Positions 3,785 through 29,327 of a DNA stretch of 64,000 nucleotides are shown one piece after another. Source of the DNA: Mytilus edulis (lineage: Eukaryota). The stretch is taken from contig NC_092350.1 in the NCBI RefSeq assembly GCF_963676685.1, positions 73,780,001-73,844,000 on the forward strand, written 5' to 3'. A program made the translations under genes and the position numbers. The notes below the pieces were generated by a model. It did not search any database. It was not told the DNA's origin and saw nothing but the letters and a program-made list of their open reading frames with translations. The number at the start of each line of letters is the position of its first letter. The first letter of the stretch is position 1.

Positions 3785-6700
3785 AACATATGATATATTA
3801 AGCTTCTCAATGATCGAAATTAGTTTTTGTCAAAATGCTATATAACCAGTGTAATTTTTCTGAAAAAATGGTTGGCTCAAAGTTTCTGAATTTTTTATAC
3901 TTTTGTCAAATGGTCAAAGTAAATACTTTGTCATAATTTTATGAAAATTAAATGAGCCAAACTAATTTTAGTGAAGGTGTTGGGTACCATGTACTTAAGA
4001 AGTTCTAGATCTCAAATATCGTAAATATGACTGCAATACACCATATTCACAAGACATTTTAAATAAACTATGTTACTTTCCAGTAATGGAATTGATTGGT
4101 GCGACCCTATAGTCCCTAATCATAGATATACATTATACTCCATTTGAAAGTTTATTAAGAGATGAACAAAAGGTATATAGTCGATATGTTCAGCAACGCA
4201 TATTAGAGGAGTAACGAAGGAATTTCACATCGAAATACGCTTGAACATTAAGAAATCATTTATTTTGAATAACGGAATGCACTGCCGCAAGTCGTTAGCC
4301 CCTTATCAAGGCAAAATTAATTCACCAAATTAAAGCTTATTGATAGAAGAATAAATTTAGTTTAAACGATATGTGCCGTAATGACCATTATAGAGGGGTT
4401 ACGGAGGACCTTATTTCAAAAATACGCGTGAAAATAAAGAAATAGCCAATTTTTAATAATGAAATTGATATTTTGAATAATGGAATTGACTGGGGCGACC
4501 CTTAAGCCCCTAATTATAGATATACATTTTACTTCATTCAAAAGCTTATGAAGAGATGAACAATTAAGAAATAGCCAATTTTGATAAACCAAATTGATGT
4601 TTTGAATAGTGGAATGGGCTGGTGCGACCCTTTAGTCTCTAATTATAGACATACATTATACGTCATTCTAAAGTTTATGAAAAGATGAACAAAGGGTATA
4701 TAGTCAATGTGTTCAGCAACGCATATTAGAGGAGTAACGAAGAAACTAAACATCGAAATACGCTTGAACATTAAGAAATAGCTTATTTTGAATAACGGAA
4801 TGGACTACTGCAAGCCGTTTGCCCCAAATCAAGGCAAAATTAATACAACAAATTTAAGCTTATTGATAGAGCAATAAATTGAGTATTAATGATATGTGCT
4901 GTAATGACTATTAGAGTGGTTAAGAAGGACCTAATGTTCAAAATACGCGTGAAAATTTAGAAATAGCCAATCTTGAATTATGAAGTGGATATTTTGAATA
5001 ATCGAATTGACTGGTGCGACCCTTTAGTCCTTAATCAAAGATATACATTATACTCCATTCAAAAGCTTATTAAGAGATGAACAAAAGGTATATAGTTGAT
5101 ATGTTCAGCAACGCATATTAGAGGAGTAACGAAGGAATTAAACATCGAAATACGCTTGCACATTTAGAAATAGCTTATTTTGAATAACGGAATGGACTGC
5201 TGCAAGCCGTTAGCCCTTATCAAGGCAAAATTAATACACCAAATGTAAGGTTATTGATAGAGGAATAAATTAAGTATAAACAATATATGCCGTAATAACC
5301 ATTAGAGGGGTCACGAAAGACCTTATTTTCAAAATACTCGTGAAAATTAAGAAATAGCCAATTTTGAATAACGAAATTGATATTTTGAATAGTGGAATGG
5401 ACTGGTGTGACCCTTTAGTTCCTAATTATAGATATACATTATACTTCATTCAAAAGCTTATGAAGAGATGAACAAAAGATATATAGTCGATATGTTCAGC
5501 AACGCATATTAGAGTAGTAACGAAGGAATTAAACATTGAAATACGCTTGAACATTAAGACATACATGTAGCTTATTTTGAATAAATTAAAGCTTATTGAT
5601 CAACGAATAAATTGAGTATTAATGATATGTGCCGTAATGACCGTTTAAGTGGTTAGGAAGGTGCCGTAATAACCATTAGAGGGGTTACGGAGGACCTTAT
5701 TTCAAAAATACGCTTGAAAATAAAGAAATAGCCAATTTTAAATAACGAAATTGATATTTTGAATAATGGATTTGACTGGGGTGACCCTTTAGTCCCTAAT
5801 CATAGATATACATTATACTCCATTCAAAAGCTTTTTAAGAGATTAACAAAAGGTGTATAGTCGATATGTTTAGCAACGCATATTAGAGGAGTACCGAAGG
5901 AATTAAACATCGAAATACGTTTGAACATTCAGTAATAGCTTATTTTGAATAACGGAATGGACTGCTGCAAGCCGTTAGCCCTTATCAAGAAAAATTAATA
6001 CACCAACTTAAAGGTTATTGTTAGAGGAATAAATTTAGTATAAGCGATGTATGCCATAATAACCATTAGAGGGGTTACAGAGGACCTTATTTCAAAAATA
6101 CGCGATAAAATTAAGAAATGGCCAATTTTGAATAACGAAATGGATATTTTGAATAGTGGAATGGACTGGTGCGACCCTTTAGTCCCTAATTATAGATATA
6201 CATTATACTTCATTCAAAAGCTTACGATGAGATAAACAAAAGTTGTATAGTCGATATGTTCAGCAACGCATATTACAGAAGTTAGGAAGGAATTAAACAT
6301 CGAAATACGCTTGAACATTAAGAAATTGCTTATTTTGAATAACGGAATGGACTGCTGGAAGCCGTTAGCCCTTATCAAGGCAAAATAAATACAACAAATT
6401 AAAGCTTATTGATAGAGGAATAAATTTAGTTTAAACAATATGTGCCGTAATAACCATTAGAGAGCTTACGGAGGACCTTATTTCCAAAATACGCGTGAAA
6501 ATTAAGAAATAGCCAATTTTGAATTACGAAATTGATATTTTGAATAGTGGAATGGACTAGTGCGACCCTTAAGTCCCTAACTATAGATATACATTATACT
6601 TCATTCAAAAGCTTACAAAGAGATGAACAAAGGGTATATAGTCAATATGTTCAGCAACGCATATTAGAGGAGTAACGAAGGAATTAAACATCGAAATACG

Positions 6701-9700
6701 CTTGAACATTAAGAAATAGCTTATTTTGAATAACGGAATGCACTGCCTCAAGCCGTTAGCCCCTAAGCAAGGCAAAATAAATACAACACATTTAAGCTTA
6801 TTGATAAAGGAATAAATTGAGTATTAATGATATGTCCCGTAATGACAATTAGATAGGTTACGAAGGACATAATGTCCAAAACACGCGTGAAAATTTAAAA
6901 ATAGCCAATCTTGAATTATGAAATAGATATTTTGAATAAGGGAATTGACTGGTGCGACCCTTTAGTCCCTGATCATAGCTATACATTATACTCCTTTCGA
7001 AAGCTTATTAAAAGATGAACAAAAGGTATATAGTCGATATGTTCAGCAACGCATATTACAGAAGTAACGAAGGAATTAAACATCGAAATACGCATGAACA
7101 TTAAGAAATTGCTTATTTTGAATAACGGAATGGACTGCTGGAAGCCGTTAGCCCTTATCAAGGCAAAATTAATACAACAAATTATAGCTTATTGATAGTG
7201 AAATAAATTTAGTTTAAACAATATGTGCCGTAACAACCATTAGAGGGGTTACGGAGGACCTTATTTCCAAAATACGCGTGAAAATGAATAAATAGCCAAT
7301 TTTGAATAACGAAATTGATTATTGAATAGTTGAATGGACTGGTGCGACCCTTTAGTCCCTAATTATAGATATACATTATACCTCATTCAAAAGCTTATGA
7401 AGAGATGAACAAAAGGTATATAGTCGATATGTTCAGCAACGCATATTAGTGGAGTAAGAAGAAATTTAAAAACATCGAAATACGACTTGAACATTAAGAA
7501 ATAGCTTATTTTGAATAGCATTATGGACTGATGCAAGCCGTTAACCCCTAATCAAGGCAAAATTAATACAACAAATTCAAGCTTATTGAAAGAGGAATAA
7601 ATTGAGTATTAATGATATGTGCCGTAATGACCATTAGAGTGGTTAGGAAGGATCTAATGTCCAAAATACGCGTGAAAATTTAGAAATAGCCAATCTTGAA
7701 TTATGAAATGGATATTTTGAATAATGGAATTGACTGGTACGATCCTTTAGTCCCTAATCATAGATATACATTATACTTCATTCGAAAGCTTATTAAGAGA
7801 TGAACAAAAGGTATATAGTCGATATGTTCAGCAACGCATATTAGAGGAGTAACGAAGGAATTAAATATCGAAATACGCTTGAACATTGAGAAATAGCTTA
7901 TTTTGAACAACGGAATGGACTGTTACAAGCCGTTAGCCCTTATCAAGGCAAAATTAATAAACCAAATTAAAGATTATTGATAGAGGAATAAATTTAATTT
8001 AAACAATATGTGCCGTAATAACCATTAGAGAGCTTACGGAGGACCTTATTTTCAAAATACGCGTGAAAATTAAGAAATAGCCAATTTTGAATAACGAAAT
8101 TGATATTTTGAATAGTGCAATGGACTAGTGCGACCCTTAAGTCCCTAACTATAGATATACATTATACTTCATTCAAAAGCTTACAAAGAGATGAACAAAG
8201 GGTATATAGTCAATATGTTCAGCAACGCATATTAGAGGAGTAACGAAGGAATTAAACATCGAAATACGCTTCAACATTAAGAAATAGCTTATTTTGAATA
8301 ACGGAATGCACTGCTGCAAGCCGTTAGCCCCTAATCAAGGCAAAATAAATACAACACATTTAAGCTTATTGATAAAGGAATAAATTGAGTATTAATGATA
8401 TGTCCCGTAATGACAATTAGATAGGTTACGAAGGACCTAATGTCCAAAACACGCGTGAAAATTTAAAAATAGCCAATCTTGAATTATGAAATAGATATTT
8501 TGTATAAGGGAATTGACTGGTGCGACCCTTTAGTCCCTAATTATAGCTATACATTATACTCCTTTCGAAAGCTTATTAAAAGATGAACAAAAGGTATATA
8601 GTCGATATGTTCAGCAACGCATATTACAGAAGTAACGAAGGAATTAAACATCGAAATACGCATGAACATTAAGAAATTGCTTATTTTGAATAACGGAATG
8701 GACTGCTGGAAGCCGTTAGCCCTTATCAAGGCAAAATTAATACAACAAATTATAGCTTATTGATAGTGAAATAAATTTAGTTTAAACAATATGTGCCGTA
8801 ACAACCATTAGAGGGGTTACGGAGGACCTTATTTCCAAAATACGCGTGAAAATTAAGAAACAGCCAATTTTGAATAACGAAATTGATTATTGAATAGTGG
8901 AATGGACTGGTGCGACCCTTTAGTCCCTAATTATAGATATACATTATACCTCATTCAAAAGCTTATGAAGAGATGAACAAAAGGTATATAGTCGATATGT
9001 TCAGCAACGCATATTAGTGGAGTAAGAAGAAATTTAAAAACATCGAAATACGACTTGAACATTAAGAAATAGCTTATTTTGAATAGCATTATGGACTGAT
9101 GCAAGCCGTAAACCCCTAATCAAGGCAAAATTAATACAACAAATTCAAGCTTATTGAAAGAGGAATAAATTGAGTATTAATGATATGTGCCGTAATGACC
9201 ATTAGAGTGGTTAGGAAGGATCTAATGTCCAAAATACGCGTGAAAATTTAGAAATAGCCAATCTTGAATTATGAAATGGATATTTTGAATAATGGAATTG
9301 ACTGGTACGATCCTTTAGTCCCTAATCATAGATATACATTATACTTCATTCGAAAGCTTATTAAGAGATGAACAAAAGGTATATAGTCGATATGTTCAGC
9401 AACGCATATTAGAGGAGTAACGAAGGAATTAAATATCGAAATACGCTTGAACATTGAGAAATAGCTTATTTTGAACAACGGAATGGACTGTTACAAGCCG
9501 TTAGCCCTTATCAAGGCAAAATTAATAAACCAAATTAAAGATTATTGATAGAGGAATAAATTTAATTTAAACAATATGTGCCGTAATAACCATTAGAGGG
9601 GTTACGGAGGACCTTATTTCCAAAATACGCGTGAAAATTAAGAAATAGCCAATTTTGAATAACGAAATTGATATTTTGAATAGTGCAATGGACTAGTGCG

Positions 9701-10609
9701 ACCCTTAAGTCCCTAACTATAGATATACATTATACTTCATTCAAAAGCTTACAAAGAGATGAACAAAGGGTATATAGTCAATATGTTCAGCAACGCATAT
9801 TAGAGTAGTAACGAAGGAATTAAACATCGAAATACGTTTGAACATTAAGAAATAGCTTATTTTGAATAACGGAAAGCACTGCTGCAAGCCGTTAGCCCCT
9901 AATCAAGGCAAAATAAATACAACACATTTAAGCTTATTGATAAAGGAATAAATTGAGTATTAATGATATGTCCCGTAATGACAATTAGATAGGTTACGAA
10001 GGACCTAATGTCCAAAACACGCGTGAAAATTTAGAATTAGCCAATCTTGAATTATGAAATAGATATTTTGAATAAGGGAATTGACTGGTGCGACCCTTTA
10101 GTCCCTAATAATACCTATACATTATACTCCTTTCGAAAGCTTATTAAAAGATGAACAAAATGTATATAGTCGATATGTTCAGCAACGCATATTACAGAAG
10201 TAACGAAGGAATTAAACATCGAAATACGCATGAACATTCAGAAATTGCTTATTTTGAATAACGGAATGGACTGCTGGAAGCCGTTAGCCCTTATCAAGGC
10301 AAAATTAATACAACAAATTAAAGCTTATTGATAGAGGAATAAATTTAGTTTAAACAATATGTGCCGTAATAACCATTAGAGGGGTTACGGAGGACCTTAT
10401 TTCCAAAATACGCGTGAAAATTAAGAAATAGCCAATTTTGAATAACGAAATTAATTATTGAATAGTTGAATGGACTGGTGCGACCCTTTAGTCCCTAATT
10501 ATAGATATACATTATACCTCATTCAAAAGCTTATGAAGAAATGAACAAAAGATATATAGACGATATGTTCAGCAACGCATATTAGTGGAGTAAGAAGGAA
10601 TTTAAAAAC

Positions 10610-10792
10610 NNNNNNNNNNNNNNNNNNNNNNNNNNNNNNNNNNNNNNNNNNNNNNNNNNNNNNNNNNNNNNNNNNNNNNNNNNNNNNNNNNNNNNNNNNN
10701 NNNNNNNNNNNNNNNNNNNNNNNNNNNNNNNNNNNNNNNNNNNNNNNNNNNNNNNNNNNNNNNNNNNNNNNNNNNNNNNNNNNNNNNNNNNN
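10610..10792. other. Assembly gap (183 N)
   Basis: Run of N. Confidence 1.
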
Positions 10793-11770
10793 ACTCATTT
10801 GGATTACACCAATTTTCAATAAGGCTCTCTTAATACAATAATAATTACATAACAAATAAACAATGCATCAATAAAAATGGTAAATAAAGATTATGTACAA
10901 TTTAAAATACAATAAACAATTATGATATGGCATTACAGTAAAAATATGATGGTAATGTTAAAAGTACATAGATTTGTATATATGTTTAAATTCTGATACT
11001 GTATTTGATTTTTTTTATTGAATTAGGAAGAGCATTCCACACTTTTGGTCCATTGTACGAGAAACTAGACTTATACAACTCTGTATTTAGTTTTGGAATA
11101 ATAAAATTATCTGAGGATGAAAATCTCGTATTATTTTTTTGGTTTGCAGAAGCTGATACAATAAGACTGGACATATATTCTGGAGCTAAGCCATGTTTTG
11201 CCTTATACATTAGTAATGATTTGTGATAAAGTATTCTTTGTGTGATTGGCACAATGTTACATTCGTGAAATAATTCTCTTGAAGGTTTGGTGTAATCATG
11301 TTCGTCTAAAATTATTCTTGCTGCCCTTTTTTGCAGTTTTAGTAAACTATCTAATAGAAAGTTATTACAGGTTCCCCATATTGAACAACAATAATCTAAG
11401 TGAGGTAAAACGTAAGCGTTATAGTACATTTGTCTAGCTTTATGATTTAAATATTTCTTTATCCTTTTTAGTAAAGCTAAAGAAGAGTTAACTTTTTTGA
11501 TTATATAATCGATATGAGATGACCAAGATAGAGATGCATCAATAAAAACACCTAGAACTTTTTCACAGGTACTTTCTATAATTTGTTGTCCATTTAAAGC
11601 AATATTGATGTTTTCATTTGATGTAACGGAAAGCTTTTGTTTAGATCCAATGCATATAGCTTTCGTTTTAGATACATTTACAGCCATTTTATTGTCATCA
11701 CACCAGCGAAAAATATCTTGTTAAACCGTATTAAGTTTTTGACTGATGCAACTTTTCTTTTGTCCAATGA
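10793..11770 (-). mobile_element. 5'-truncated CR1/L2-group LINE (C-terminal RT region plus 3' UTR) inserted in the satellite
   Basis: ORF 10986-11687 has KTK..I, KVLGVFID..LSW..HI, PHLDYC..IWG, LQKRAARII and SFSY.GP..WN.LP. The satellite monomer broken before the gap resumes at ~11770. Confidence 0.9.
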
Positions 11771-14144
11771 CATTAAGAAATAGCTTATTTTGAATAGCAT
11801 TATGAACTGATGCAAGCCGTTAATCCCTAATCAAGGCAAAATTAATACAACAAATTCAAGCTTATTGAAAGAGGAATAAATTGAGTATTAATGATATATG
11901 CCGTAATGACCATTAGAGTGGTTAGGAAGGATCTAATGTCCAAAATACGCGTGAAAATTTAGAAATAGCCAATCTTGAATTATGAAATGGATATTTTGAA
12001 TAATGGAATTGACTGGTGCGATCCTTTAGTCCCTAATCATAGATATACATTATACTTCATTCGAAAGCTTATTAAGAGATGAACAAAAGGTATATAGTCG
12101 ATATGTTCAGCAACGCATATTAGAGGAGTAACGAAGGAATTAGATATCGAAATACGCTTGAACATTGAGAAATAGCTTATTTTGAACAACGGAATGGACT
12201 GTTACAAGCCGTTAGCCCTTATCAAGGCAAAATTAATAAACCAAATTAAAGATTATTGATAGAGGAATACATTTAATTTAAACAATATGTGCCATAATAA
12301 CCAGTAGAGGGGTTACGGAGGACCTTATTTCCAAAATACGCGTGAAAATTAAGAAATAGCCAATTTTGAATAACGAAATTGATATTTTGAATAGTGGAAT
12401 GGACTGGTGCGACCCTTAAGTCCCTTACTATGGATATACATTATACTACATTCAAAAGCTTATGAAGAGATAAACAAAAGGTATATAATCGATATGTTCA
12501 GCAACGCATATTAGATGAGTAACAAAGGAACTAAACATCGAAATTCGCTTGAACATTAAGAAATAGCTTATTTTGAATAACGGAATGGACTGCTGCAAGC
12601 CGTTAGCCCCTTATTTATGCAAAATTAATAACCAAATTAAAGCTTATTGATAAAGGAAAAAATTGAGTATTATTGATATGTGCCGTAATGACCATTAAAG
12701 TGGTGAGGAAGGACCTAATGTCCAAAATACGCATGATAGAGGAATAAACGGAGTATAAACGATATGTGCGACAATGACCATAAAGAAAATCAAGAAATAG
12801 CCAATTATGTATATGAAATGGATATTGATTTATAGCATGGACTGCTGCCACTATTTAGCCTCTAATTATAGATATGCCTTATAGCTCATTCGCAAGCTTA
12901 TTAAGAGAGGGAAAAAAATATAAAGTCGATATGTTCTGCAACACATATTAGAGGAATAACGAAGGATCTTAACATCGAAATTCGCTTGAACATTAAGAAA
13001 TAGCTTATTTTGAATAATGAAATGGACTGCTGCAAGCCCTCAGTCTTTATTAAGGCAACATGTATAGAGGAATAGAGTGACTTTAAATATATGTTCAGCA
13101 ATGCATATTAGAGGAGTAACGAAGGAATTAATCATCGAAATACCCTTGAACATTAAGAAATAGCTTATTTTGAATAACGGAATGGACAGAAAACCTGTCA
13201 GATAGAAAGATAGCTGTTTCGTCGATGTATTTCCACACCACCTATTATTCAGATTTTTAAAAGATATAAATATGCTAAAAGGGCATGTGTGTCAGAAGTC
13301 ACCTTAAAACAAATGTCTTAATATTAAAAGAAATAAGAAATGCATCTATTTGCTTTAATTATATTATAATTGTGCAAATCAGAAGATCTTTCTATCATGT
13401 CTATATAGCATGTTTTTGAATGATATTTCCCAGTTCAAAGTGTTTTATTAAAACCATAATTATATTTAACACCGAAACAAAATTTTAATTCCAAATTAAT
13501 ACTCGGATACAAACACTTTGGTTTGTTTTGAGACTAAGAAATGAGCGGGAAATGTAACTGTAAGCTATACATTATAAATCATCATGTGTTAACCCAACTA
13601 ACATGTTTATTTAGATAGTGTCGAAAAATGTTGCGACAGAAGCGGGAAATATAACTGTAAGCAATTATACATAACATGCTGATTACGCATTTCTCACGGA
13701 TATTTGATACAGGGAAGGTCGTTGTTTTATCATCTCAACCACAAGTACACATTCCATCGTCTAGTTTCCGCTGCAATTTATAATTAATCGACAGTGCTCG
13801 ACATCATTCTTAAGTATTTTACGTCACCGATAAAGGATTAGATATAAAAAAAAAAATCAAAAAATTATTAAATAAATATGATACTTTAAATCTTTTTCAT
13901 TAATGATATGATACTTTAAGTCTTTTTTCTAACTATTTTAACACATCGACCATCTTTTCATTTTTAAAAGAAACCATGTATATTGAAAAAAAGAATATGT
14001 TAGTTTGTTCCAGGGTGTTTATATCCTTCGATTTGGAAAACAAATGTTTGTTCCAAGCAAATATAACTATGCCCCCTTGAAAAGATGAATATTGGGGCTA
14101 AAAAATATTTAGTTTTTTATTTAGAAATTTTTTTTTATTATTTC

Positions 14145-17100
14145 ATGATTCAAAATAAGCTATTTTATAATTTTCACCCGTATTTTGATTTTTAGGTACT
14201 TCATAACTCCTCTAATATGCGTTGCGGAACATATTTACTATATACCTTTTGTTCATCTTTTAATAGGCTTTCGAATGAGGTAAAATGTATATTTGTATTT
14301 AGGGGCTGAAGTGTTGCAGCAATCCAATCCATTATTCAAATTATCCATTCAATTGTTCAAAATTGGCTATTTCTTAATTTTCACGCGTATTTTGGCATTT
14401 TGGTCCTATGTAACCGTGTGGGTTTTCTATCAATAGCTTTCACATGGAGTTTTTAAAGTTTTCCTAATTTAGGAACTGAGTCATTGCCTCTAAATAAAGT
14501 TGTTATTACTGACCAGTCACAGCAGTTCATTCTTTTATTAAAAAGAACTATGTCTTAATGTTTATATAAAAAAAGATGTGGTATGATTTCCAATGAGATA
14601 ACGGTCCATAAGAGATTTAAATGACACAGAATACGCATTATGTATATTTCGACATGTTAGATCCTTCGTTTCTCCTCTAATATGCGTTGCGGAACATACT
14701 AACTACATATATTTTGTTCTTCTATTGATAGGCTTTCGAATGAGGTATCATGTAAATATGTAATTATGGGTTGAAGGGTCACAGCAATCCATTGCATCAT
14801 TCAAAATTGGCTATTTCTTAATCTTCACGGTTATTTTAATTTGTGCTCCGTAATCTCGAGCTCCCTAATGGTCATTGCGGCACATATTATTTATAACCTA
14901 AACCATTTTGTTTCTCGGTCAATGGACTTTCAAATGGTTATAACGTTTTCCTTAATTAGGGGCTGACGTTCTCAGCAGTCCATTTCATTATTTAAAATAA
15001 GCTACATTTTTATTTCTTAATATTTACATGTACATTGTATTTCGATTTTTAGATCCTTCGTTACTCTCCGCGTTGCGTAGTATATACGATTTGTTCCTCT
15101 ATGATTAAGCTTTCGAATGAGCTTGAAGGTATTTCTGTAATTATAAGGCTGAAGGGTCACAGCAGTTCATGTCATTATTTCAAAATATTCATTCCGTTAT
15201 TCAAAATTGGCAATTTCTTTCTTTTCACGCATTTAAGTCATCCATTACCTCTCTGTCATTGAGGGACATATTATTTATACATTTTATTTCTCTATCAATT
15301 AGCTTTCACATGGTGTATAAAGTTTTCCTTCATAAGGGGCTTACGGGTCGCATCAGTCCATTCCATTATTCAGAGTAAGCTATTAATAAAGCCATAATGT
15401 TCACCCGTATTTCGATTTTTAGGTCCTTCATTACTCCTCTGATATACGCTACATTTGGTGACCTTCGGCTGTTGTGTTTTCTATGGTCGGGTTGTTTGAC
15501 ACATTCCCAATTTTATTGCAGATCATATTGACAAAATATCTTTTGTTCCTCTTGTAATAGGCTTTCAAATGAGATATAAAGTCATATGTAATTAGGGCTG
15601 AAGGTTCACATCAGTCCATTACATTATTAAAAATATCCATTCCAGTTTTCAAAATTGTTTATTTCTTAATTTTCACGCGTATTTTTGTATTTAGCTCCTC
15701 CGTTACACATCTAATTGTCATTGGGGCACATATTAGCTATAAACATTTTGTTCCTCTATTTATAACCTGGCAAATGGTGTATAAAGTTTCCCTTAAGTAG
15801 GAGCTTACGGGTTGCAGGAGTTAATTTCATGATTGAAAAAAAGCTATTTTATAATGTTCACCCGTATTTCGATTTTTAGGTACTTCATTTCTCCTCCAAT
15901 ATGCGTTGCGGAACATATTAACTATATACCTTTTGTTCCTCTATAATTAAGCTTTCGAATGAGGTTAAGGGTATTTCTGTAATTAGGGGCTGAAGGGTAA
16001 CAGTAGCTCATGTCATTATTTCAAAATATTCATTCCATTATTCAAAATTGGCAATTTCTTTCTTTTCACTCATTTAAGTCCTCCGTTACCTCTCTTATGG
16101 TCATTGAATGACGTATTACTAATACATTTTGTTTCTCTATCAATAAGCTTTCACGTAGTGTATAAAGTTTTCTTTTATAAGGGGCTGACAAGTCGCATCA
16201 GTCCATTCCATTATTCAGAGTAAGCTATTAATAAAACCATATAATGTTCACCCGTATTTCGATTTTTTAGGTCCTTCATTACTCCTCTGATATACGCTAC
16301 ATTGAAAACCTGTTGGTGACCTTCGGCTGTTGTGTTTTCTATGGTCGGGTTGTTTGACACATTCCCCATTTCCATTCTCAATTTTATTACAGATCATATT
16401 GACTAAATATATGTTGTTCCTCTTGTAGTAGGCTTTAATGAGATTTTAAAGTCATATGGAGTTAGGTCTGACGGTTCACATCAGTCCATTACAGTATTAA
16501 AAATATCCATTTCAATTTTTCAAAATTGTCTATTACTTAATATTTAGGTCCTCCATAACCCTTTTAATTGTCATTAGGGCAGTCCCCGCACATATATATT
16601 ATCTATAAACATTTTGTTCCTCTATTTATAACCTTGCAAATGGTGTATAAAGTTTTCCTTAATTATAGGGGCTTATGGGTTGCAGAAGTTCATTTCATGA
16701 TTTAAAATAAGCTATTTTATAATGTTCACCCGTATTTCGATTTTTTAAAGGTAGTTCTTTACTCCTCCAATATGCGTTGCGGAACATATTAACTATATAC
16801 CTTCTGTTACTCTTTTAATAGGCTTTCGAATGAGGTAAAATGTTTATTTGTAATTAGGATCTGAACTATCGAAGCAATCCATTCCATTATTAAAAATTGG
16901 CTTTTTTTATTTTCACGCGTATTTTGGCATTTTGGTCCCCTGTAACCCTATTAAAACGTCATTGTGGTTTCTCTATCAATAAACTGTCTCATTGTCTATA
17001 AAGTTTTCCCTAATTAGGGCATGAGTTACTGCCTCTGAATAACGATACTATTACTGACGAGTCGTAGCAGTTCATTATATTATTAAAAAAGCTATTTCAT

Positions 17101-19475: not shown

Positions 19476-20199
19476 GTCTTTGACTAGCAATACTTTGAAC
19501 CACTGACAACGGTCTCTTTAACGATCCCATGCTCAAAAATGACAAAACTAAAGAACAAAGTATATTGTCCCTGCTAGCCTGAATAGTGTAGGTTTCAGCT
19601 CGAGAGTTCCCACTAAAGGCATTTGTTTTTTTAGATAAAAAGATTTGTGATACCCAGTCTACAAAATCAAACAAAAGTTCAAAATCTGACTCTCGTCTGT
19701 ACTAATTGTTTCATTGGCAATTATACTACATTTTCTCATTATTATGTTGCTGCATAAATGTCTTTAAGGATGAAACTTCTGTTGGTGGTTACGGTTCGGA
19801 GATGGGCTATTCTGCCCTTGTCAGATTTCTCATACAAGTGTTTATATATTAGTATTCTAGTTAGAAGAAAAGAGCTTGCAGTTATCCGCTATCTCAAGAA
19901 GTTACACATTTGCATTAAATAACATGCGATGAAATAAACACTTGAAATTAGTGAAATTCTAAAGATGTCGTAGACATGTTGATTTATTAATCAGTCTGGG
20001 AATTCATGGCAAGCCATAACTCTACAATGTTATGGTAACCCATAACCTTTCAATTTTTTGAGATACCTCTACATTATCCTCTTTCATTTTAGTATGGTTA
20101 CGTTCTCATTATCACTTTCGGTATATTCCGGATCGCTAATCGTTCCCTCACCGATGTCGGTATTTTGTTAACAATTCACATCCGGGTCACTGTGTAAAA

Positions 20200-22457
20200 A
20201 TGGACGAACAACAACCATCGACATCGCATTCAAGGGGTATGTAAATTAGCCGACTACGGCAATATTATATGTTACACCTGAATGAACCTGCATGTAGTGG
20301 TACCTAAATGATTAATTTACATTTTACAATACTCAAACACGCAATTACGCTTTTATTTAAACAAATTACGCTTTTCCAAACTCGTCCAAAACATGGAATA
20401 TACACGTACGTTATGGTTAACCCTAACTTTATTCACCTGAATGGTTACGGTTTACCATAACTAAAGAAAGGTTACGGATATCCGTAACTTAAATGGGGAG
20501 CAGTTGTTTATTTTATTAAACAAGCTGAACGGATAATTGATATCGAGGTAAAATGAAAAAAGGGGGGTTGTAAACATGTAAATATACACGAAATAAAGCG
20601 CATGTTAAATATGCATGGTATTTAGAAGAGTAAATTTTCAAAGAAATATTGGAGAGCAGTTTAAAAAATATTATATTTACACAAGGATTTTTATAGTTGG
20701 TTTACATCAACATGATCAACAATGTATAAGCAGCAGTATTTCTGGCCTGTTAAAGTTTTATACTATATTTGTGAAGTCATACATGTATCTTACATGTTTT
20801 GAAAAAAAAACATAAAATGTTGATCAACCTTACCAACATTCAGACACACAATTATAGCGCTTTTATTTAAAGAATTTACTCTTTTCCAAACTCACTCAAA
20901 AAATAAAATATTCATAAGAGTTGTGGTTAATGTAATAATTCAGAATATTCATTTGTTTAAAATTGTTCCACTTCCAATGCTTCGAAACAGAAACAGTATT
21001 ACAAGCTGTCAGTCTGTCTGTCCATCCTGTCTCGTTTGAACTTATATAAGGTGCACTCTATAATGTGTGAAGCATGCATATTACAAGTTAACCTTGTATG
21101 AAATATTATGCATCATGAGAAATACAATGCATGCATGTCAACTTCATGACATAGTTTGCCTATATGCTGCCTGTATACATAGCTATTCATGACAGTTGTC
21201 AATTACAGATCGTTGAATTTGCAAAATGTACATGTACGTAGTATTCATTTATCCATTAGCACTTAAATATTGATAAAAGGCCTAAATTAAAATATTGTTT
21301 GTTTCCCTAATCCAGACCGACCCTACACAAATGGTACTACTCATGAAATTTTATTGTCAAAACTAAGTCAAATATTATTTTATTCGTTTTGGATTTTAAG
21401 GCTTTCCAGATCGTCCGATTAAGTTCAAGCTTTTTGGAAAATAAAATTATTTACCTACCTACCTATCCACACCTGGCTTGGCAAGGTTGGGATTGGGGAA
21501 ACAAACAATCTATTAATTTAGGCCAAACCAAGTCAATTGAGCTTTGAGGAAATCTCACAATGGTAAAAAACAAAAGCACCAATTTCACAGCTGCATAATA
21601 TCTTTTTAATTATTCAGTTCATTTTTATTACATACTAGTTTATTGTACATGTTGTAGCTTTGAAACAAACATACATATGAAAATAAATAGATATAAAGTT
21701 ATTGTGCACGAGATAAAATCACATACAATACATAGAAAAATAAATACAAATTACAAATGAAAAGGGCTTTTTTACCTGTTCTTCATCTTGACAGTTTTCA
21801 GAAGGTCTTTTACAAAGAAAAATCATTCATATATGTAGCCTACAACACGACCAAGACAGCCCCTAGCATATGATTGTTTAATTTTAAGTTCACCATGCTT
21901 TAAAAGTTTTTCTTAATAACATAAAAAGAGTCACATTTCTCTGCATTATGCATATTTACAAGTTATTAGTACATGTACATGCATGAATTATGCACTCATA
22001 TAATTTGTCCCTACCTATGACCTATAACTTTATAGTCACATGTCTTAAATTTTCAGAAGACTTTCCAACAACTGATAAGCATCACATGGAAAAGTTAAAT
22101 GAAATTTGTCGAATATGTGGTAAAGTGATGAAAAAGCCAATTCAAAAGATAAAGTTTGCTGATGAGTTTAAAGGACTTTTTGAAATTGACGTGAAAAAAG
22201 AAGACCCACAAATTTTTCCAGCATATATGTGTGCTATGCATGGTGCTATGTTTTACCGTTTTAGGACTGCATTGCGAAACAATGCACCGTATTCTACTGA
22301 TTTTCTTCCTCCTACTTTTGAAATGCATTCAGACCATTGTCAAGTTTGCAAAAAAACAAGTGTCTTGGATAAAGATGTTACAGAAAGGTCGCGCTGGAAC
22401 CCTCCTGGAAGAGGAAAACGTTGTGCAACATATATACAACCAAACAATTTAGATACG
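20200..22457 (+). pseudogene. Spliced gene for a RAG1 N-terminal (CND/Chapa-like) Zn-binding domain, disrupted by a Penelope insertion; exons 20200-20236 and 22057-22457
   Basis: HMEKLNEICRICG..FEIDVKKEDPQIFPAYMC..FEMHSDHCQVC parallels vertebrate RAG1 H..L..LCRICG..FRIDVK.D...IHP..FC..W.PH...C..C. Phase-1 donor G|GTATGT and acceptor TTTCAG|AA join in frame. Confidence 0.8.
21279..21524. mobile_element. MITE with GGCC termini and 3 bp flanks (Zator/PIF-like)
   Basis: ggcctaaattaa..ttgtttgtttccc at the left and gggaaacaaacaa..ttaatttaggcc at the right; AAA on both sides. Confidence 0.75.
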
Positions 22458-22581
22458 AATGAGATATAACGAGTCCAGAACCAATCCTATATATACCAAT
22501 ACATATTCTTAGTATTTGACTTTATTTCATAATCTATTTTGTTCAATTCAATATTTTATCATAAATATTTGTTGTTTTTTA

Positions 22582-22729
22582 AGGTGTTTCGGTTAAGGTT
22601 TAACTACCAAGGCTTTTCCTCATCAGGTATCCCAAGCCTCTAACTAATAAAATAATCAGTTTCAAAGTAAAGTTCAAAGCATCCATACGCATAGAATTTA
22701 AAAATTCTGCATACCGGGATACGACACCT
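22582..22729 (-). ncRNA. Type III hammerhead ribozyme, copy 1
   Basis: AGGUGUC^GUAUCCC...GGGAUAC CUGAUGA G...C GAAACACCU: 7 bp stem I, 6 bp stem III, intact core and GUC triplet. Confidence 0.85.
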
Positions 22730-22831
22730 GGTAACTTTGTATTGATGTATTGTATTCTAAATTAAATCAGTTTATGATTTGATATAACTATTGTCTTTTA
22801 TGTTGTGATTTATCCTATAACTTGGTTTATC

Positions 22832-24139
22832 CTATAACTTGGAGGATGTAAGTAGATCCTTCAAGTTTTTGTTTCTTTTATATGCTATGATCGGAGGTTT
22901 TGGAAACATGGTTTTTGTGATATCATTTTGTTCAATTAGGTGCCAATGTTTTTTAATTGCTTTATTTAGTCCATTGAAGGAAGGATTAAATTTGGTGGCT
23001 AAAACTAATGGAGGCATTGCTCTTGTGTTTTTAAGCTTGTACCTTAGACAATCTTTTCTTTCCTTATGAAGTGCATTTGTTATAATGGGGTTGATATCTT
23101 TTTCCGAGTATCCCCTTTGGAGAAGTTTTGTTTTAAAAGTTTCAATTTCTTTTAGTGTATCTTTTTTGTTATTTGATGATCTCATAAAACGCAATATTTC
23201 CGCAGTAATAAATCCATTGAACACCGATGATGGGTGAGCTGACGTTCGTTCAAGATACTGAAAGTTATCAGTAGGTTTACGGTATAGTTTTACGTCTAAT
23301 ATATTATGATTAAGGAATCTGTTTCCTTTAAAAATTGTGACGTCAAGGAATTGAATGCTAGATTGTGATATTTCATGCGTAAATTTTATCAACGGGTGTA
23401 TATTATTAGCAATGTTAAATAATTCAGTAAGATTATCTTGACTAGAATTAAAAAGAATGAATCCATCATCTCTGTATATAGATAACAGTGCTAAGTTATC
23501 TTTAAAAGGAAATATATCAAGAATATTCGTTATAATCTCGAACATTCTTAAATCAGCCAGGGATGGGCTCATTGGGGCTCCCATTGGGATTCCACATGTC
23601 TGTCTGAATATCAAGTTATTAAATTCAAATTCATTATTGCATAGAATGAATTGAAGTATTCGTAAGAAGTCCTTTTTTGGTGGTAGAGGTATTTCATGTT
23701 TATTACGACATATTTTGTACCATGCTCTGTCAACTGCTTGCAGTATTTCATCGTGAGTTAAGGAATTGTACATACTAGTAATATCAAAAGTGCACATAAT
23801 TATGTCATCCGGTGCCCTTATTTGTTCTATTTTGTTGATAAATGAGGTCGTGTCTTGTGTATAAGTCCATAATTGGCTAACTACCGGTTTTAGGAAGTGG
23901 TCTATAAATTGACCAATTTTTTCAATTGGACTATTGCATAATGATACAATTGGTCTCCCAGGAATATCTATATTTTTAAGGAAATCTTTGTTAGTTTTGA
24001 TTTTTTCTCTATCTTCATGGTTAATTTTGTGAATTTTTGGCAACATATAGAGTCGTCCCACTCGTATATTGGCATTATTGGCTAGGTATTTATATGTTAT
24101 ATCGTCGATATATTCTTTCTTGTGTAGTTGTTTGATCAT
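22832..24139 (-). CDS. PLE reverse transcriptase (frame open back to ~24245); no C-terminal GIY-YIG
   Basis: LYMLPKIHK, GRPIVS, FDITSMY, Q..GIPMG, YRDDGF, FLDV, YRKPT..YL..S.HP, AYKRNKNLKDLL then stop. Confidence 0.9.
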   Translation of the reverse strand: MIKQLHKKEYIDDITYKYLANNANIRVGRLYMLPKIHKINHEDREKIKTNKDFLKNIDIPGRPIVSLCNSPIEKIGQFIDHFLKPVVSQLWTYTQDTTSFINKIEQIRAPDDIIMCTFDITSMYNSLTHDEILQAVDRAWYKICRNKHEIPLPPKKDFLRILQFILCNNEFEFNNLIFRQTCGIPMGAPMSPSLADLRMFEIITNILDIFPFKDNLALLSIYRDDGFILFNSSQDNLTELFNIANNIHPLIKFTHEISQSSIQFLDVTIFKGNRFLNHNILDVKLYRKPTDNFQYLERTSAHPSSVFNGFITAEILRFMRSSNNKKDTLKEIETFKTKLLQRGYSEKDINPIITNALHKERKDCLRYKLKNTRAMPPLVLATKFNPSFNGLNKAIKKHWHLIEQNDITKTMFPKPPIIAYKRNKNLKDLLTSSKL

Positions 24140-24369
24140 TTTTTGAATAGTTTCGGATATTTTGTTCGTATTAAATTCATGAATTTGCTCATAGCATATA
24201 CTGTTGTTCAGGAAATTCAGTGTTTGTTTAATATATAGATTTTTAAATGAGATATAACGAGTCCAGAACCAATCCTATATATACCAATACATATTCTTAG
24301 TATTTGACTTTATTTCATAATCTATTTTGTTCAATTCAATATTTTATCATAAATATTTGTTGTTTTTTA

Positions 24370-24517
24370 AGGTGTTTCGGTTAAGGTTTAACTACCAAGG
24401 CTTTTCCTCATCAGGTATCCCAAGCCTCTAACTAATAAAATAATCAGTTTCAAAGTAAAGTTCAAAGCATCCATACGCATAGAATTTAAAAATTCTGCAT
24501 ACCGGGATACGACACCT
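24370..24517 (-). ncRNA. Type III hammerhead ribozyme, copy 2
   Basis: Same motif in the second direct repeat. Confidence 0.85.
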
Positions 24518-24955
24518 GGTAACTTTGTATTGATGTATTGTATTCTAAATTAAATCAGTTTATGATTTGATATAACTATTGTCTTTTATGTTGTGATTTA
24601 TCCTATAACTTGGTTTATCCTATAACTTGGAGGATGTAAGTAGATCCTTCAAGTTTTTGTTTCTTTTATATGCTATGATCGGAGGTTTTGGAAACATGGT
24701 TTTTGTGATATCATTTTGTTCAATTAGGTGCCAATGTTTTTTAATTGCTTTATTTAGTCCATTGAAGGAAGGATTAAATTTGGTGGCTAAAACTAATGGA
24801 GGCATTGCTCTTGTGTTTTTAAGCTTGTACCTTAGACAATCTTTTCTTTCCTTATGAAGACATATTGTTTTACTGCCAAACACCTCTTATCATTAATATT
24901 ATTTAAATATCATGATAATTGTGTCCATAAAGTAATTATCAAATCAATTTAATTA

Positions 24956-25018
24956 AAACACATGTTTTGTGTGTCCAAGCTTTGTTTACAAGTATCTGAA
25001 ACCAATTACTGTCCGTTT
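24956..25018 (+). pseudogene. Possible decayed RING-finger remnant of the RAG1-N-like gene
   Basis: Translates KHMFCVSKLCLQVSETNYCPF, resembling RAG1 KHVFC..C...C......YCP.C; lies just beyond the PLE insertion; flanked by stops. Confidence 0.4.
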
Positions 25019-25240
25019 TCCTCGTGGTGTGTCTTATCAAAATGCAGCTTGAACAGTTTGTAAGCTCTGAAGTCTCAATGACTGATGTATTATAACCAGA
25101 ACAAAAAGTAAAACAAAGAGCTCTGAGTTTCTGTGTGATAGAATACATTATAATTTGAATTCAAAGTGGTTCATTTGCACTCATACCACGGATACATCTA
25201 CTTGTAAATATAAAAATGATCTGTATTTTAAAAATTGTAG

Positions 25241-26276
25241 GTGCAGATCTGTTTGACATGAGAGATATAGGAGAAGAGGAAAACGAGTTGGATTCTGACA
25301 GAGGTAGCTATTTCTTAAAGACATATTTTTAAAAATAGGGAAGATTACATTTCAAAATGATTGTTTACATTTTTTTTTCAAATAAATATATACATTTCGA
25401 TGAACATGATGAATGAAACAAACGATTTCTATTAATCCTCATCTTTATGATCATTAAATCTCTGATTATAAAACATTTGCACATGTTCAAGACTGTTCAT
25501 AGCTTTATAGGAAATAACATCAATTGACATGATTGATCGTTTTAACCTTATTTACATAATACATTTATTTATTTGTAGATTCAGAGGAGAGTATGGTTTA
25601 CATTGCTACTCCATGTACACCTCAATCCAGCAAAGCCCCATCACCCAGAAAAAGAAAGAGGGGACAGTATTTAAGAAAAGAAAGCGGGACAAGTTCACAG
25701 AAGGAAAAAAGGGAAGCCAACAGAATTAAAGGGATTCACCACAGGAGGAGGAATGCAATATATAAAGAATTGCTTCATTTAAAAATGGACACCCAGTGGG
25801 AGGGGATAGTAATTCTAAGGTCCAAAGATAAAACAAAAATAGTTTGTGGGGGAACAGATACAGAGCTCGAAGAACGGTTTTTCCAGCAGGAAGTTCTTGT
25901 TGACAATTTGGACAAAATCAAAAAAAAAGATATGCACAAAATTGACATGTCTAGTGTTATGCTCAAACTGTCTTCAGTTGGTAAAAGGATGGAATCAGTT
26001 CTTGAATCTCCTGATCCATCGCCATCAAAGGTTCCAGAGATTGCAAGGGATATGCTACCAGGGCCATCCCAAAAAAAAGATCTGGAATCCATTCCATTGA
26101 AAAAATCTGATGGTGTCAGTGATTACCAGTCGATTTTGACTGGTTTCACTAAGAAGAAGAGCAACATATGCCTCTTCAAATCTGATAAAGGAGGAGAAGC
26201 TTCCGAGGAACAGTCAGGAAAAGGAAAAGGCAAAGGAAAGGGAAAAGGAAAGGGCAAAAAATCAAAGAAGGACTAA
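25241..26276 (+). CDS. Transposon accessory gene of unknown function (acidic patch, basic region, (GK)n tail); exons 25241-25303 and 25579-26276, first exon probably 20200-20236
   Basis: 227 aa ORF preceded by TTGTAG acceptors at 25240 and 25578 and donor G|GTAGCT at 25303; all phase 1 and in frame (GADLFDM..DSDR-DSEESMVYI). Confidence 0.7.
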
Positions 26277-27643
26277 GTAACTTCTTTTAAATATCAATTG
26301 GTAACATCCGGTGCTAGTTCTTTGATTTAGGTTCCCTGGATTTCATTCACAAAAATGGGGGGATACTAAGTTTTTTAGACTTTACCTCAAAAATGTTTTA
26401 GGAATATTCATACAATCTCCTTTTTGATTTTAAATAAAAATCCATGTTGTTATTACAATTTAGAACTTTTAAGTGTTAACCAAAATATTCACATAGTGTT
26501 ATTCACTTTAGAATGCCTAAAATTATTTCCATTTAAACTTAAAAAATGTAAAATCATGTTTATATTCCGATTTTGTCGTTGTTGTTTTTTTCTCATATGT
26601 TGTTTCAGAGTACAGGTTATACCATTCTGAAATAAGACAATTTTGTTAATACTTGTTTTGGGCAATAACTCTAGTATGTCTTTACTTTTCAGTTCTTTTG
26701 CCAGCTTCATTCTGTTGAGCATTTTATTATATTTTGACTCTAGATTCATTTCTCAGGAGCCACTTTTGATTCATATACTACCTTCATTTAAACAGTCTTA
26801 TTGCTGTAGTAAATAAGCAGTTTGAATAAAATTGCAGGCGTATTGTGTCTATAGTAAGTCTTTTAAACATTGTAAATATGAAATATGCAGCATGTCTTTG
26901 TTTTTGTATTTTTGTTATGATCAGATATGTTTCATGGTTTAAAATATAGACAGAATAATTCCAAGACTTGGTTTCAAGGCAATATTGATTAATCTCTGTA
27001 ATTTTGTATTGAACAATGTTGAATACTGTCAGTATAATATAAGGTTGTGTTGAATATGCTAGTCATTTTTTTAGTATTTACAAAGTCATGTTTTATCACG
27101 TCATTATACTTCAAAAAGTAAGACCATTTGTAAAAGGTTTTTTTTTTTATTTTTGTTATGATTATATAGGTTTTTTAGGTGAAACTATATGTAAAGTACA
27201 TGTAAAATACAAATACATTAATACATGTATTTGCAGAATGTTATAGGCAATGATAGTAACAGTCTGACACTCTATTCCAAGGCAATATTGAATTTTTTAT
27301 TTTATTTTTTATGAATATACAATATTTTTGTTATGAAATTTCAATTTTCTCAAACATTTACAAAGTTTTGTTTAAATGTGTCATCATGATTCACCCAATA
27401 ATGCTCTTTGTAACCACATACATGTTTTTGCCAAATTTAAAAGGCAGTTTTGATATTATGTTCATCTTTTTCAATTTGTTATAAATATACCTCATTGTCT
27501 ATATTTTTTATAAACATTTACAAAGTTATGTTTTTTAACTTGTTATTTTTATGTACGGGTATATCAATCATTGTTAATTACCATAATTATTGTTAAAACT
27601 TTTGAATACATGATATTTTTAATAAATTCATACTGATCAACAT

Positions 27644-29019
27644 TTATGCATATAGTCTTTGTTGTAAGTCTTCATGAGTCACACATTCTTCAATAATGTG
27701 CATGGCATGTTCAAAATATTCCTTCTTTATCTGAATAACATAGTGGCATTTTAAATCTGCTCCCCCTCCTGGTTGGTCATGTCTTTCGTTGCCTCTTCTG
27801 CGTCTAAATTGCTGGTGAGAGAGTGGTCTTGTTGACACAGTTGCTTCCCCAGTGTATCTACATGTTATATTTTCAACATAACCCCTTGTTGTCAACAGAT
27901 GGAAGGCCTTACACAGATTTGCTGGTACTCTCCCTACTTGTTTACCTGAATAATAATATAAATCAGATATAAATAATATGAATATTTGTTTTACATGAAA
28001 TTAGAATCATGAATTGTCTATATTCAATTTTCACAAAAGTGATGTTAGTACAATAGCTATTCAAATATGTTAGGAAGCATTAAGTTTAAGAGCTACGTGT
28101 CGAAATCATTGTTATGATCATTAGGCATCTATACTGGTCTTTTTAAAACGTTGCACTTCTATGGAAATAAAGATAATGACGAATAATTGTTTAACAACCA
28201 GTAGCAGGTCAGGTGCTTATTAAGGATTAGAACATGATAATGAGAAATAAGAAACCCTACTTTTGTACTAGCACTTGGACAGATTTTTAACAGTTTGCAG
28301 GAACAAATTATTTTGGATCCAGGCCAACTAGTCTTTGCTTTTACTCATTAAAGCTCAATGTCATGTGCTTGGCCATGTTGGCAGAGAAGCAGCAAATAAT
28401 TTTCAAGTCTGTGGTTGGTACCTTTGTCTTATGCCACTTGATATTTGATAACATAGATATAGGAAGATGTGGTGTGAGTGCCAATGAGACAACTCTCCAT
28501 CCAAATAACAATTTAAAAAGTACACCATTATAGGTTAAAGTACGGCCTTCAACACAGAGCCTTGGCTCACACCGAACAACAAGCTATAAAGGGCCCCAAT
28601 ATTACTAGTGTAAAACCATTCAAACGGGAAAACCAACGGTCTAATGCACCCTAACAATTTCACCACAGAGGGTTTTGGCAGTCTTTTGTTGTGTCAAGTC
28701 GTTCAAACAAAATAAAATTTTAACCTCACTAAGCAGGAAAACTTTACTCACCTGCTATGTGTCGCACTCTTTGTGGTGGATTACCATCTTTTGTTACAGT
28801 ATCATGAAGATGCTGAGGGATGTGCTGCAGTGCTGGAACTGACACCTTCATTGCATGAGGATCATATGGATTGTTAACCTCCAATTCAACATTCAATGGA
28901 ATCTCAACATGTGGCCGCAAACGAAAAACATGATAGCCTTTTATACTCCAATCAAATTTTATAGGTCTAACATTCATATTTTGTCTAACGATTGTGTTGT
29001 ATTCTGAACTGGATGCCAT
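27644..29019 (-). CDS. Intact two-exon HIRAN-like domain protein, 189 aa (exons 29019-28752 and 27945-27644)
   Basis: G|GTGAGT donor and TTCAG|G acceptor join IKGYHVF..LEVNNPYDPHAMKV to KQVGRVP..GGGADLKCHY, the E..N.YD..A..V / VG.VP HIRAN signature. Confidence 0.8.
28460..28645 (-). mobile_element. SINE-like 3' fragment (family B) in the HIRAN gene intron
   Basis: aagatgtggt..gccaatgagacaactctcca is the reverse complement of copies at 29870-29915 and 30225-30260. Confidence 0.6.
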
Positions 29020-29327
29020 GATCAAGAAGATACAAAATATAGCATTTTGCTTATGGTATGGACTACCAAAACCTTTTGATGACTTGAGGTTATGGTAAAC
29101 CCTAACTAGAAAGGTAATGGATGCCCATAACCTTATCAAGAGAAATGAAAAATAATTTCTCCCTCCCTCAAAATGCACAGTTATGGATATCCATAACTAT
29201 GAAGGTTATGGGTTACCATAACATTGTAGAGTTATGGCTTGCCATGAATTCCCAGACTGTTAATTGATTAGGATAAGATATCTTGGTTTTCAGTTGATTG
29301 CATCCGTGTCGTTCTCTCACAAGTACA

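Follow-up and report, generated by a model that had tools for sequence, protein, structure and literature searches.

The locus described here raises the question why a DNA transposon should carry a gene resembling the HIRAN domain of HLTF and Rad5: whether it is a genuine spliced gene, whether it belongs to the element, and what its product could do there. It lies in a 64,000-nucleotide stretch of Mytilus edulis DNA (NC_092350.1, positions 73,780,001 to 73,844,000; hereafter the window). The element occupies window positions 19992-29259 (9.3 kb) and is bounded by perfect 58-bp terminal inverted repeats (TIRs) with a CAG start and by a TTAAT target duplication. Its features are as follows:

19987..19991, unstranded: left target-site duplication TTAAT, read from the sequence
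19992..20049, plus strand: left TIR, CAG start; perfect over 58 bp, 90% over 73 bp
20029, 20410, 20444 and 20471, plus strand: palindromic GTTAYGG..CCRTAAC subterminal motifs
20200..20236, plus strand: transposase exon 1, with a phase-1 donor next to it; read from the sequence, in agreement with the start of P0161
22057..22459, plus strand: remnant of transposase exon 2 with a RAG1-NZD/Chapa-like zinc finger (Pfam RAG1_imp_bd, E 1.3e-7); about 146 of 1,030 aa left
22460..24851 (2,392 bp), minus strand: retroelement piece which, from its layout, we take to be Penelope-like; RT frame at 22832-24274 (RVT_1, E 1.6e-8) and terminal direct repeat
25241..25303, plus strand: probable internal exon of gene 2, with AG/GT boundaries
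25579..26276, plus strand: last exon of gene 2, with a basic tail; MADS-box-like as a lead only
27245..27643, minus strand: 3' untranslated part of the HIRAN transcript, to the limit of the contig from run X1
27945-27644 (302 nt), minus strand: HIRAN exon 2 (G90-A189 and stop)
27946..28751 (806 nt), minus strand: HIRAN intron, starting GTGAGT and ending ATTCAG, with a high-copy repeat at about 28453-28645
29019-28752 (268 nt, phase 1), minus strand: HIRAN exon 1 (M1-A89), bearing the IKGYHVF and NNPYD motifs
29020..29166, minus strand: 5' leader of the HIRAN transcript, to the limit of the contig from run X1; starts just inside the right subterminal repeats
29202..29259, minus strand: right TIR, 58 bp perfect
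29260..29264, unstranded: right target-site duplication TTAAT

An intact sister copy of 10.9 kb (G000:C3:60018682-60029587, TCTAG duplication) was 99.5% identical to the window element in its right part and 98.8% in its left part, and contained an open 1,041-codon transposase frame (L037:2474-5596) as well as an open HIRAN gene. The database model of its transposase, P0161, has two exons and 1,030 aa. Relative to this copy, 4,031 bp of the window element were replaced by the 2,392-bp retroelement piece, which removed the transposase past approximately residue 146, including the catalytic domain, together with the 5' exons of gene 2. The initial annotation had treated the remaining N-terminal frame as a separate, dead 'RAG1-N gene'. 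This assignment was not upheld, as the frame encodes the N-terminal zinc finger of the DDE transposase of the element itself (1,030 aa), whose frame remains open in the sister copy. TIRs and 5-bp duplications were found in all six bounded copies with these ends, which are also shared by four non-autonomous elements. The sister copy is itself inserted in a further element, which has long inverted repeats and spans approximately 13 kb with the insert included (L015-L016, G000:C3:60017000-60030200). Elsewhere in the window, positions of about 4000-16100 hold a long array of related units of approximately 390 bp, with inverted blocks at about 14100-16030 and N at 10610-10792.

Gene 2 can be called MADS-box-like as a lead only. 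Its Atlas features gave 0.84 to SRF-TF clusters and a profile of six relatives reached SEPALLATA3 at E 0.34, while its last exon showed no match in Pfam. Relatives of this MADS-box-like gene were observed at L057:406-1071, L062:8424-8951 and L061:703-1314, and PHD fingers in other branches.

Joining of the two HIRAN exons across the 806-nt GT-AG phase-1 intron yielded a protein of 189 aa followed by a stop, as had been proposed from the two separate open reading frames. Among 16 donor/acceptor offsets tried around these sites, it was the only GT-AG pair. An uncharacterized M. edulis protein (P0001) was identical to the spliced product; it may derive from the same assembly, and its identity is therefore not independent support for the gene model. 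A further protein (P0155) differed by one residue. The junction 28752/27945, for which RNA evidence had been called for, was covered by a 1,116-nt contig of run X1 (RNA by guess) that spanned 29166-27245 with 0 mismatches and skipped exactly the 806-nt intron. This splice support consists of a single contig from a single run of guessed type, among four runs aligned; the DNA-like run X15 yielded unspliced pieces without an exon-exon joint. No exon depth was found in the portions read of the raw RNA runs X21 (6%) and X24 (18%), which may reflect low expression or absence of the element from those animals. The HIRAN start codon is separated from the inner edge of the 58-bp TIR by 183 nt and from the end of the element by 240 nt, in agreement with the earlier estimate of about 180 bp. 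At six sites that tell the two copies apart, the X1 contigs (window 26138-26425 and 27245-27943) followed the window copy and not its sister; the transcribed haplotype may be the transposase-dead one, although individuals differ, so that this is not proof. The gene, stand-alone, spliced and predicted to adopt the HIRAN fold, is real, and we hold its identity with high confidence.

Neither exon alone matched the Pfam HIRAN profile at E<=1, whereas the joined protein matched it (PF08797) over residues 42-113, across the junction, at E 0.0086 and 16.3 bits, below the gathering cut-off of 24.7. The proposal that the HIRAN signature is complete only after splicing thus held, albeit with a weak match. 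Among relatives in the HIRAN family, 36 of 66 matched the same profile at E<=0.1 (best 1.1e-8). An AlphaFold2 model, based on an alignment of 66 relatives hand-picked from a pool of P0003 and the 150 top-ranking rows in the relative search, had a pLDDT of 93.6. Foldseek placed HLTF HIRAN chains on all of ranks 1-11 (probability 1.00, TM up to 0.77 by target), with a best E of 1.2e-3 and none under 1e-3. VIA, which is independent of Foldseek, gave HLTF HIRAN as top match (Z 14.2, rmsd 2.7, 121/121 aligned), followed by Lactobacillus lp_0118 (bacterial HIRAN-like, Z 9.7) and Rad5 (Z 8.0), with all others at 5.9 or less. The six-stranded barrel and two helices of HLTF were present in the model. 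A phmmer search of P0001 against solved structures found no match, and the family profile reached HLTF at E 0.3 only, so that the evidence for the fold rests on the predicted model. The structural check suggested by the initial annotation thus came out in favor of a HIRAN fold, which is the prediction for the 189-aa protein. The representative library held 317 relatives at E<=0.001. Where a source was named, among 20 clusters queried together with P0003, it was Mytilus, Saccostrea, Pecten, Saccoglossus, Ptychodera, or Hydractinia.

In HLTF HIRAN, D94 is described as reading the 3'-OH while Y72 and Y93 pinch two bases (PMC5773155), and an NN90,91AA mutation is reported to abolish fork reversal (PMC4666394). 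The NNPYD motif of the transposon protein aligned with that of HLTF, N50, Y52, and D53 corresponding to N91, Y93, and D94. Of 65 rows in the family alignment, 60 had N50, 60 had D53, and 48 had Y or F at position 52. When aligned by motif, the position of the second stacking tyrosine, HLTF Y72, was occupied by V31 in a variable column with conserved neighbors (Y29, H30, F32). H110 and K113, which have roles in the HLTF pocket, corresponded in a hand alignment to R95 and A98. Because Y72, H110, and K113 were not retained, the 3'-OH pocket is only partly kept. The transposon protein further contains inserts and conserved motifs (VPANL, GGG) that are missing from HLTF, G94 and P97 are invariant in its family, and it has no motor or ligase domain. 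Compared with the HIRAN domains of HLTF and Rad5 (PDB 4XZG, 4XZF, 5BNH), it shares the predicted fold, the NNxYD loop (N91, Y93, D94 in HLTF), and the GxxVG strand, but stands alone without helicase or RING, has about 60 extra residues and a variable Y72 position, is encoded inside a transposon, and is 13-19% identical. We infer that the transposon HIRAN would bind 3'-OH DNA ends. HIRAN domains have been traced to phages and bacterial selfish elements (PMC3417536, PMC6222260).

A model of the transposase had a pLDDT of 85.8. Foldseek found no significant match to the whole model; the top 23 VIA rows were all transposases or integrases, the closest solved fold being the P-element enzyme (Z 10.1, rmsd 6.3, 349 aligned), and RAG1/Transib cores were absent from the 50 VIA rows. 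An acidic triad was invariant in the covering rows: D327 (44/44), D568 (45/45), and E820 (44/44). DUF6589 (PF20231) was detected in 8 of 46 homologs and also in an Atlas cluster at 0.87; this domain is, we assume, linked to the Academ superfamily. The element is a DUF6589-type (Academ-like) DDE transposon. With AcademX and AcademH it shares the DDE/RNase H core, PF20231 in homologs, and extra DNA-processing genes, but it carries HIRAN and MADS-like genes instead of a nuclease or helicase, and an NZD zinc finger. The 1,041-aa frame contained no Pfam domain of a nuclease or helicase, an Academ trait, and it was the only long frame seen in the 10.9-kb copy. Target duplications are 3-4 bp in AcademX and 9-10 bp in AcademH according to PMC10045372, against 5 bp in the family of the window element; a related branch had 4-bp duplications in 5/5 bounded copies.

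The profile of the transposase N-terminus matched the RAG1 NZD (PDB 21WB) at E 8e-10, and against full-length RAG1 the match of the transposase profile was confined to residues 102-270 (NZD) and did not extend to the core. RAGL/Transib elements share the 5-bp duplication, a RAG1-NZD-like N-terminal zinc finger, and a multi-gene organization with the mussel element, but its ends are CAG..CTG and not CAC (PMC7204232 for RAGL ends), its similarity to RAG1 is confined to the NZD, and no RAG2-like partner was seen. Membership of RAGL/Transib was ruled out by the ends and by the absence, by sequence, of a RAG1-type core. Chapaev (CMC) elements likewise have a Chapa/NZD-like N-terminal zinc finger, a link made in a 2026 preprint (10.64898/2026.01.24.700457) that describes Chapaev as the only lineage outside RAG consistently retaining an NZD-like domain. 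Their CAC ends and 3-4-bp duplications, as given in PMC4079192, differ from the CAG ends and 5 bp found here, and membership was ruled out by the termini. The combination of a RAG1-NZD/Chapa-type zinc finger with a DUF6589-type DDE core, CAG ends, and 5-bp duplications was observed at L037:2474-5596 and at window 22057-22459; a RAG1-type zinc finger on a non-RAG core bears on the origin of that domain. Kolobok elements, of a different superfamily, resemble the mussel element as DDE elements whose sublineages carry differing optional accessory proteins acting on DNA; as described in the part of PMC9587614 used here, these are nucleases or helicases, with no HIRAN among them. In the mussel genome, one contig (G000:C11, approximately 6% of the genome) held 39 of 81 transposase matches and 9 of 14 HIRAN exon-2 matches, many of them broken; this contig may correspond to a chromosome on which such elements build up.

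Association of HIRAN with this transposase was investigated in 35 fetched regions, 31 of which had a transposase match and ten of these 31 a HIRAN; six of the ten were chosen because of their HIRAN, and 4 of 25 transposase-only picks also had one. Three layouts were observed. In 5-bp elements, HIRAN is convergent at the right end (window, C3:60.02, C3:12.70, C6:81.09). A branch of 25% identity, which has 4-bp duplications and includes a PHD gene, shows HIRAN in divergent orientation at the opposite end (4 of 5 bounded copies), and the gene has a different intron there. In a decayed copy (C2:56.46) and two of five relevant metagenome loci, it lies in tandem upstream of a transposase of this type, immediately so at the metagenome loci. 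Two of the remaining metagenome loci span less than 1.5 kb, and in the third (4.7 kb) no transposase was seen. One metagenome contig (L155:1-5016) contains two HIRAN-transposase units in tandem. A GTDB match (L159) was discarded, as it lies in a bacterial protein that is unrelated and shares the motif by chance. Three profiles detected no HIRAN in seven bounded relatives with 5-bp duplications (9-27 kb, long transposase frames), although a HIRAN divided among many small exons could have escaped these profiles. These seven HIRAN-less elements indicate that HIRAN is not needed for transposition. A TIR pair with duplication was not found in 6 of 13 extended regions. Elements of 20-27 kb with matching TIRs, 5-bp duplications and long transposase frames were seen at G000:C13:23.66, C11:42.37, C2:17.27, C11:21.90, C3:16.39, and C6:44.88 Mb; they are mostly unannotated and may contain further multi-exon genes. 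In a quick tree of 14 transposases, HIRAN occurred on four branches intermixed with HIRAN-less ones, for which an old gene of the lineage with repeated losses is the simplest reading. HIRAN is a conserved yet optional third gene of this DUF6589-type transposon. Its description as chance cargo was accordingly given up: with three layouts beside the same transposase type, it is a standing accessory gene of the lineage.

The intron donor has the same place and phase in three HIRAN subfamilies and the acceptor in four. Between three subfamilies, with three frameshifted loci left out, pS was 0.69-0.83 (dS 1.9 or saturated) against a dN of 0.49-0.54, and third codon positions were the least conserved. 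Judged from these coding sequences, HIRAN is under purifying selection between subfamilies. The dN/dS comparison among copies that had been proposed was informative at this level; within subfamilies, 0-4 changes left nothing to read. Between window and sister copy, 0 changes were found in 570 nt of HIRAN coding sequence, where about 2 were expected from the flanking rate, a difference that is not significant. Of eight other HIRAN loci read, four were open and four broken by frameshifts or a stop, and HIRAN thus decays in dead copies like any element gene. The contrast drawn earlier between an open HIRAN and a dead RAG1-N gene was correct insofar as the frame is open and the transposase broken in this copy. 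It reflects no copy-specific selection: a single Penelope insertion broke a young copy with a sister of about 99% identity, so that the open HIRAN frame in the window carries no weight.

A Pfam search of the genome yielded eight HIRAN matches. One of the eight resembles an HLTF exon and for one no context was found; the remaining six form two families of small frames (approximately 140 aa or fragments) accompanied by pogo-type transposase sequence (HTH_psq, DDE_1):

G000:C12:67.48, C9:17.80, C2:16.56, C3:72.09, C4:67.92 and C8:23.68 Mb: pogo-associated, stand-alone, canonical HIRAN frames (L114-L127)

The frame at C4:67.92 Mb lies within a 3.4-kb TIR pair; clear TIRs were not found at most pogo-HIRAN loci. 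In a quick HIRAN tree, the pogo HIRANs, which are of the more canonical type, fell outside the Academ-like family on long branches (SH-aLRT 91). Recruitment of HIRAN was likely, though not proven to be, independent in the pogo and DUF6589 lineages, as judged from this tree and the protein types. The separate HIRAN type in pogo points to a need common to cut-and-paste elements. A further, divergent frame of 139 codons that resembles HIRAN was also observed (L120-L121, G000:C4:59.87 Mb); no transposase was found within approximately 10 kb to either side of it.

With regard to function, the reading that we favor, while giving it somewhat less than an even chance, is that HIRAN binds free host 3'-OH ends at the excision break and at insertion gaps and steers repair in favor of the element. 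In DDE enzymes, the transposon 3'-OH is the nucleophile of strand transfer and is held in the active site, which makes host DNA the more probable ligand, namely the ends that flank the break left by excision and the 3' ends in gaps at the insertion site. After excision of P and mariner elements, the donor flanks carry 3' overhangs. By binding two unpaired 3' bases, HIRAN could cap such an overhang at the donor site; capping would delay end joining and thereby favor copying of the element back from the sister chromatid. Of the two roles initially proposed, binding of cleaved transposon ends and direction of insertion to stalled forks, the former appears the less likely. HIRAN would in that case protect the excised element or damp strand transfer; the 3'-OH-reading aspartate is retained and every DDE excision yields such an end, but with the 3'-OH in the transposase active site a cap should block insertion, and we consider this role improbable. 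Binding to the 3' ends of nascent strands where forks have stalled or gaps persist, by which HIRAN would draw the transpososome to replicating DNA, seems rather unlikely. Nascent 3' ends are the natural ligand of HLTF HIRAN, and the MADS-like gene of the element and the PHD genes of other branches resemble targeting parts. However, no obvious target-site feature separated HIRAN-bearing from HIRAN-less elements (few duplications, compared by eye), and HIRAN has no known connection to the transposase. A complex prediction for transposase 245-1010 and HIRAN 12-189 scored 0.21 against a mark of 0.34, which gave no verdict either way. A precedent for targeting is TnsE of Tn7, a separate transposon protein that recognizes 3' DNA ends in host DNA and has a proven targeting role; it is bacterial and of unrelated fold, and the role of the mussel protein is putative.

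Loss of Y72, the lineage-specific inserts, the invariant G94 and P97, and a Pfam score below the cut-off would fit a re-purposed fold that has given up the reading of DNA 3' ends and binds RNA or a protein instead. N50 and D53 are, however, among the best-kept positions, and named family members include bivalves and hemichordates; such re-purposing has a low probability in our estimate. A free HIRAN without motor or ligase domain could also be dominant-negative: it would compete with HLTF/Rad5 of the host, or with other factors that process DNA ends, and shift repair genome-wide. As this would harm the host, and as expression looks low or patchy, a counter-defence of this kind is quite improbable. 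That HIRAN is passive cargo, or a domesticated host gene sitting in a dead element, finds some support in the many relatives without HIRAN and in the six sites at which X1 contigs agree with the window copy and not with its sister. Against it stand the purifying selection between subfamilies, the decay in dead copies, the three layouts with the same transposase type and, without significance, the unchanged 570 coding bases where about 2 changes were expected; we regard it as highly improbable.

Binding of host 3'-OH ends, the favored reading, lends itself to direct testing. The sister copy at G000:C3:60.02 Mb has matching ends, a duplication, and open transposase and HIRAN frames; relatives that lack HIRAN offer ready-made controls, and D53 suggests itself for point mutation. 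Among the literature matches listed, no title or abstract described a HIRAN gene in eukaryotic DNA transposons; Repbase Reports, outside that search, may mention it. In a broader and more tentative proposal, which we think possible but would not expect to hold, two unrelated groups of animal cut-and-paste transposons, DUF6589/Academ-like and pogo elements, each recruited a stand-alone HIRAN as a dedicated 3'-end handler. It would be a eukaryotic counterpart of TnsE, either coupling transposition to replication forks or biasing donor repair toward re-copying the element. Multiplication of such elements and survival of the breaks that they cause are usually credited to host repair alone. If the proposal is true, transposons would steer the repair step themselves by means of their own 3'-end binder, which would help to explain how cut-and-paste elements gain copies.
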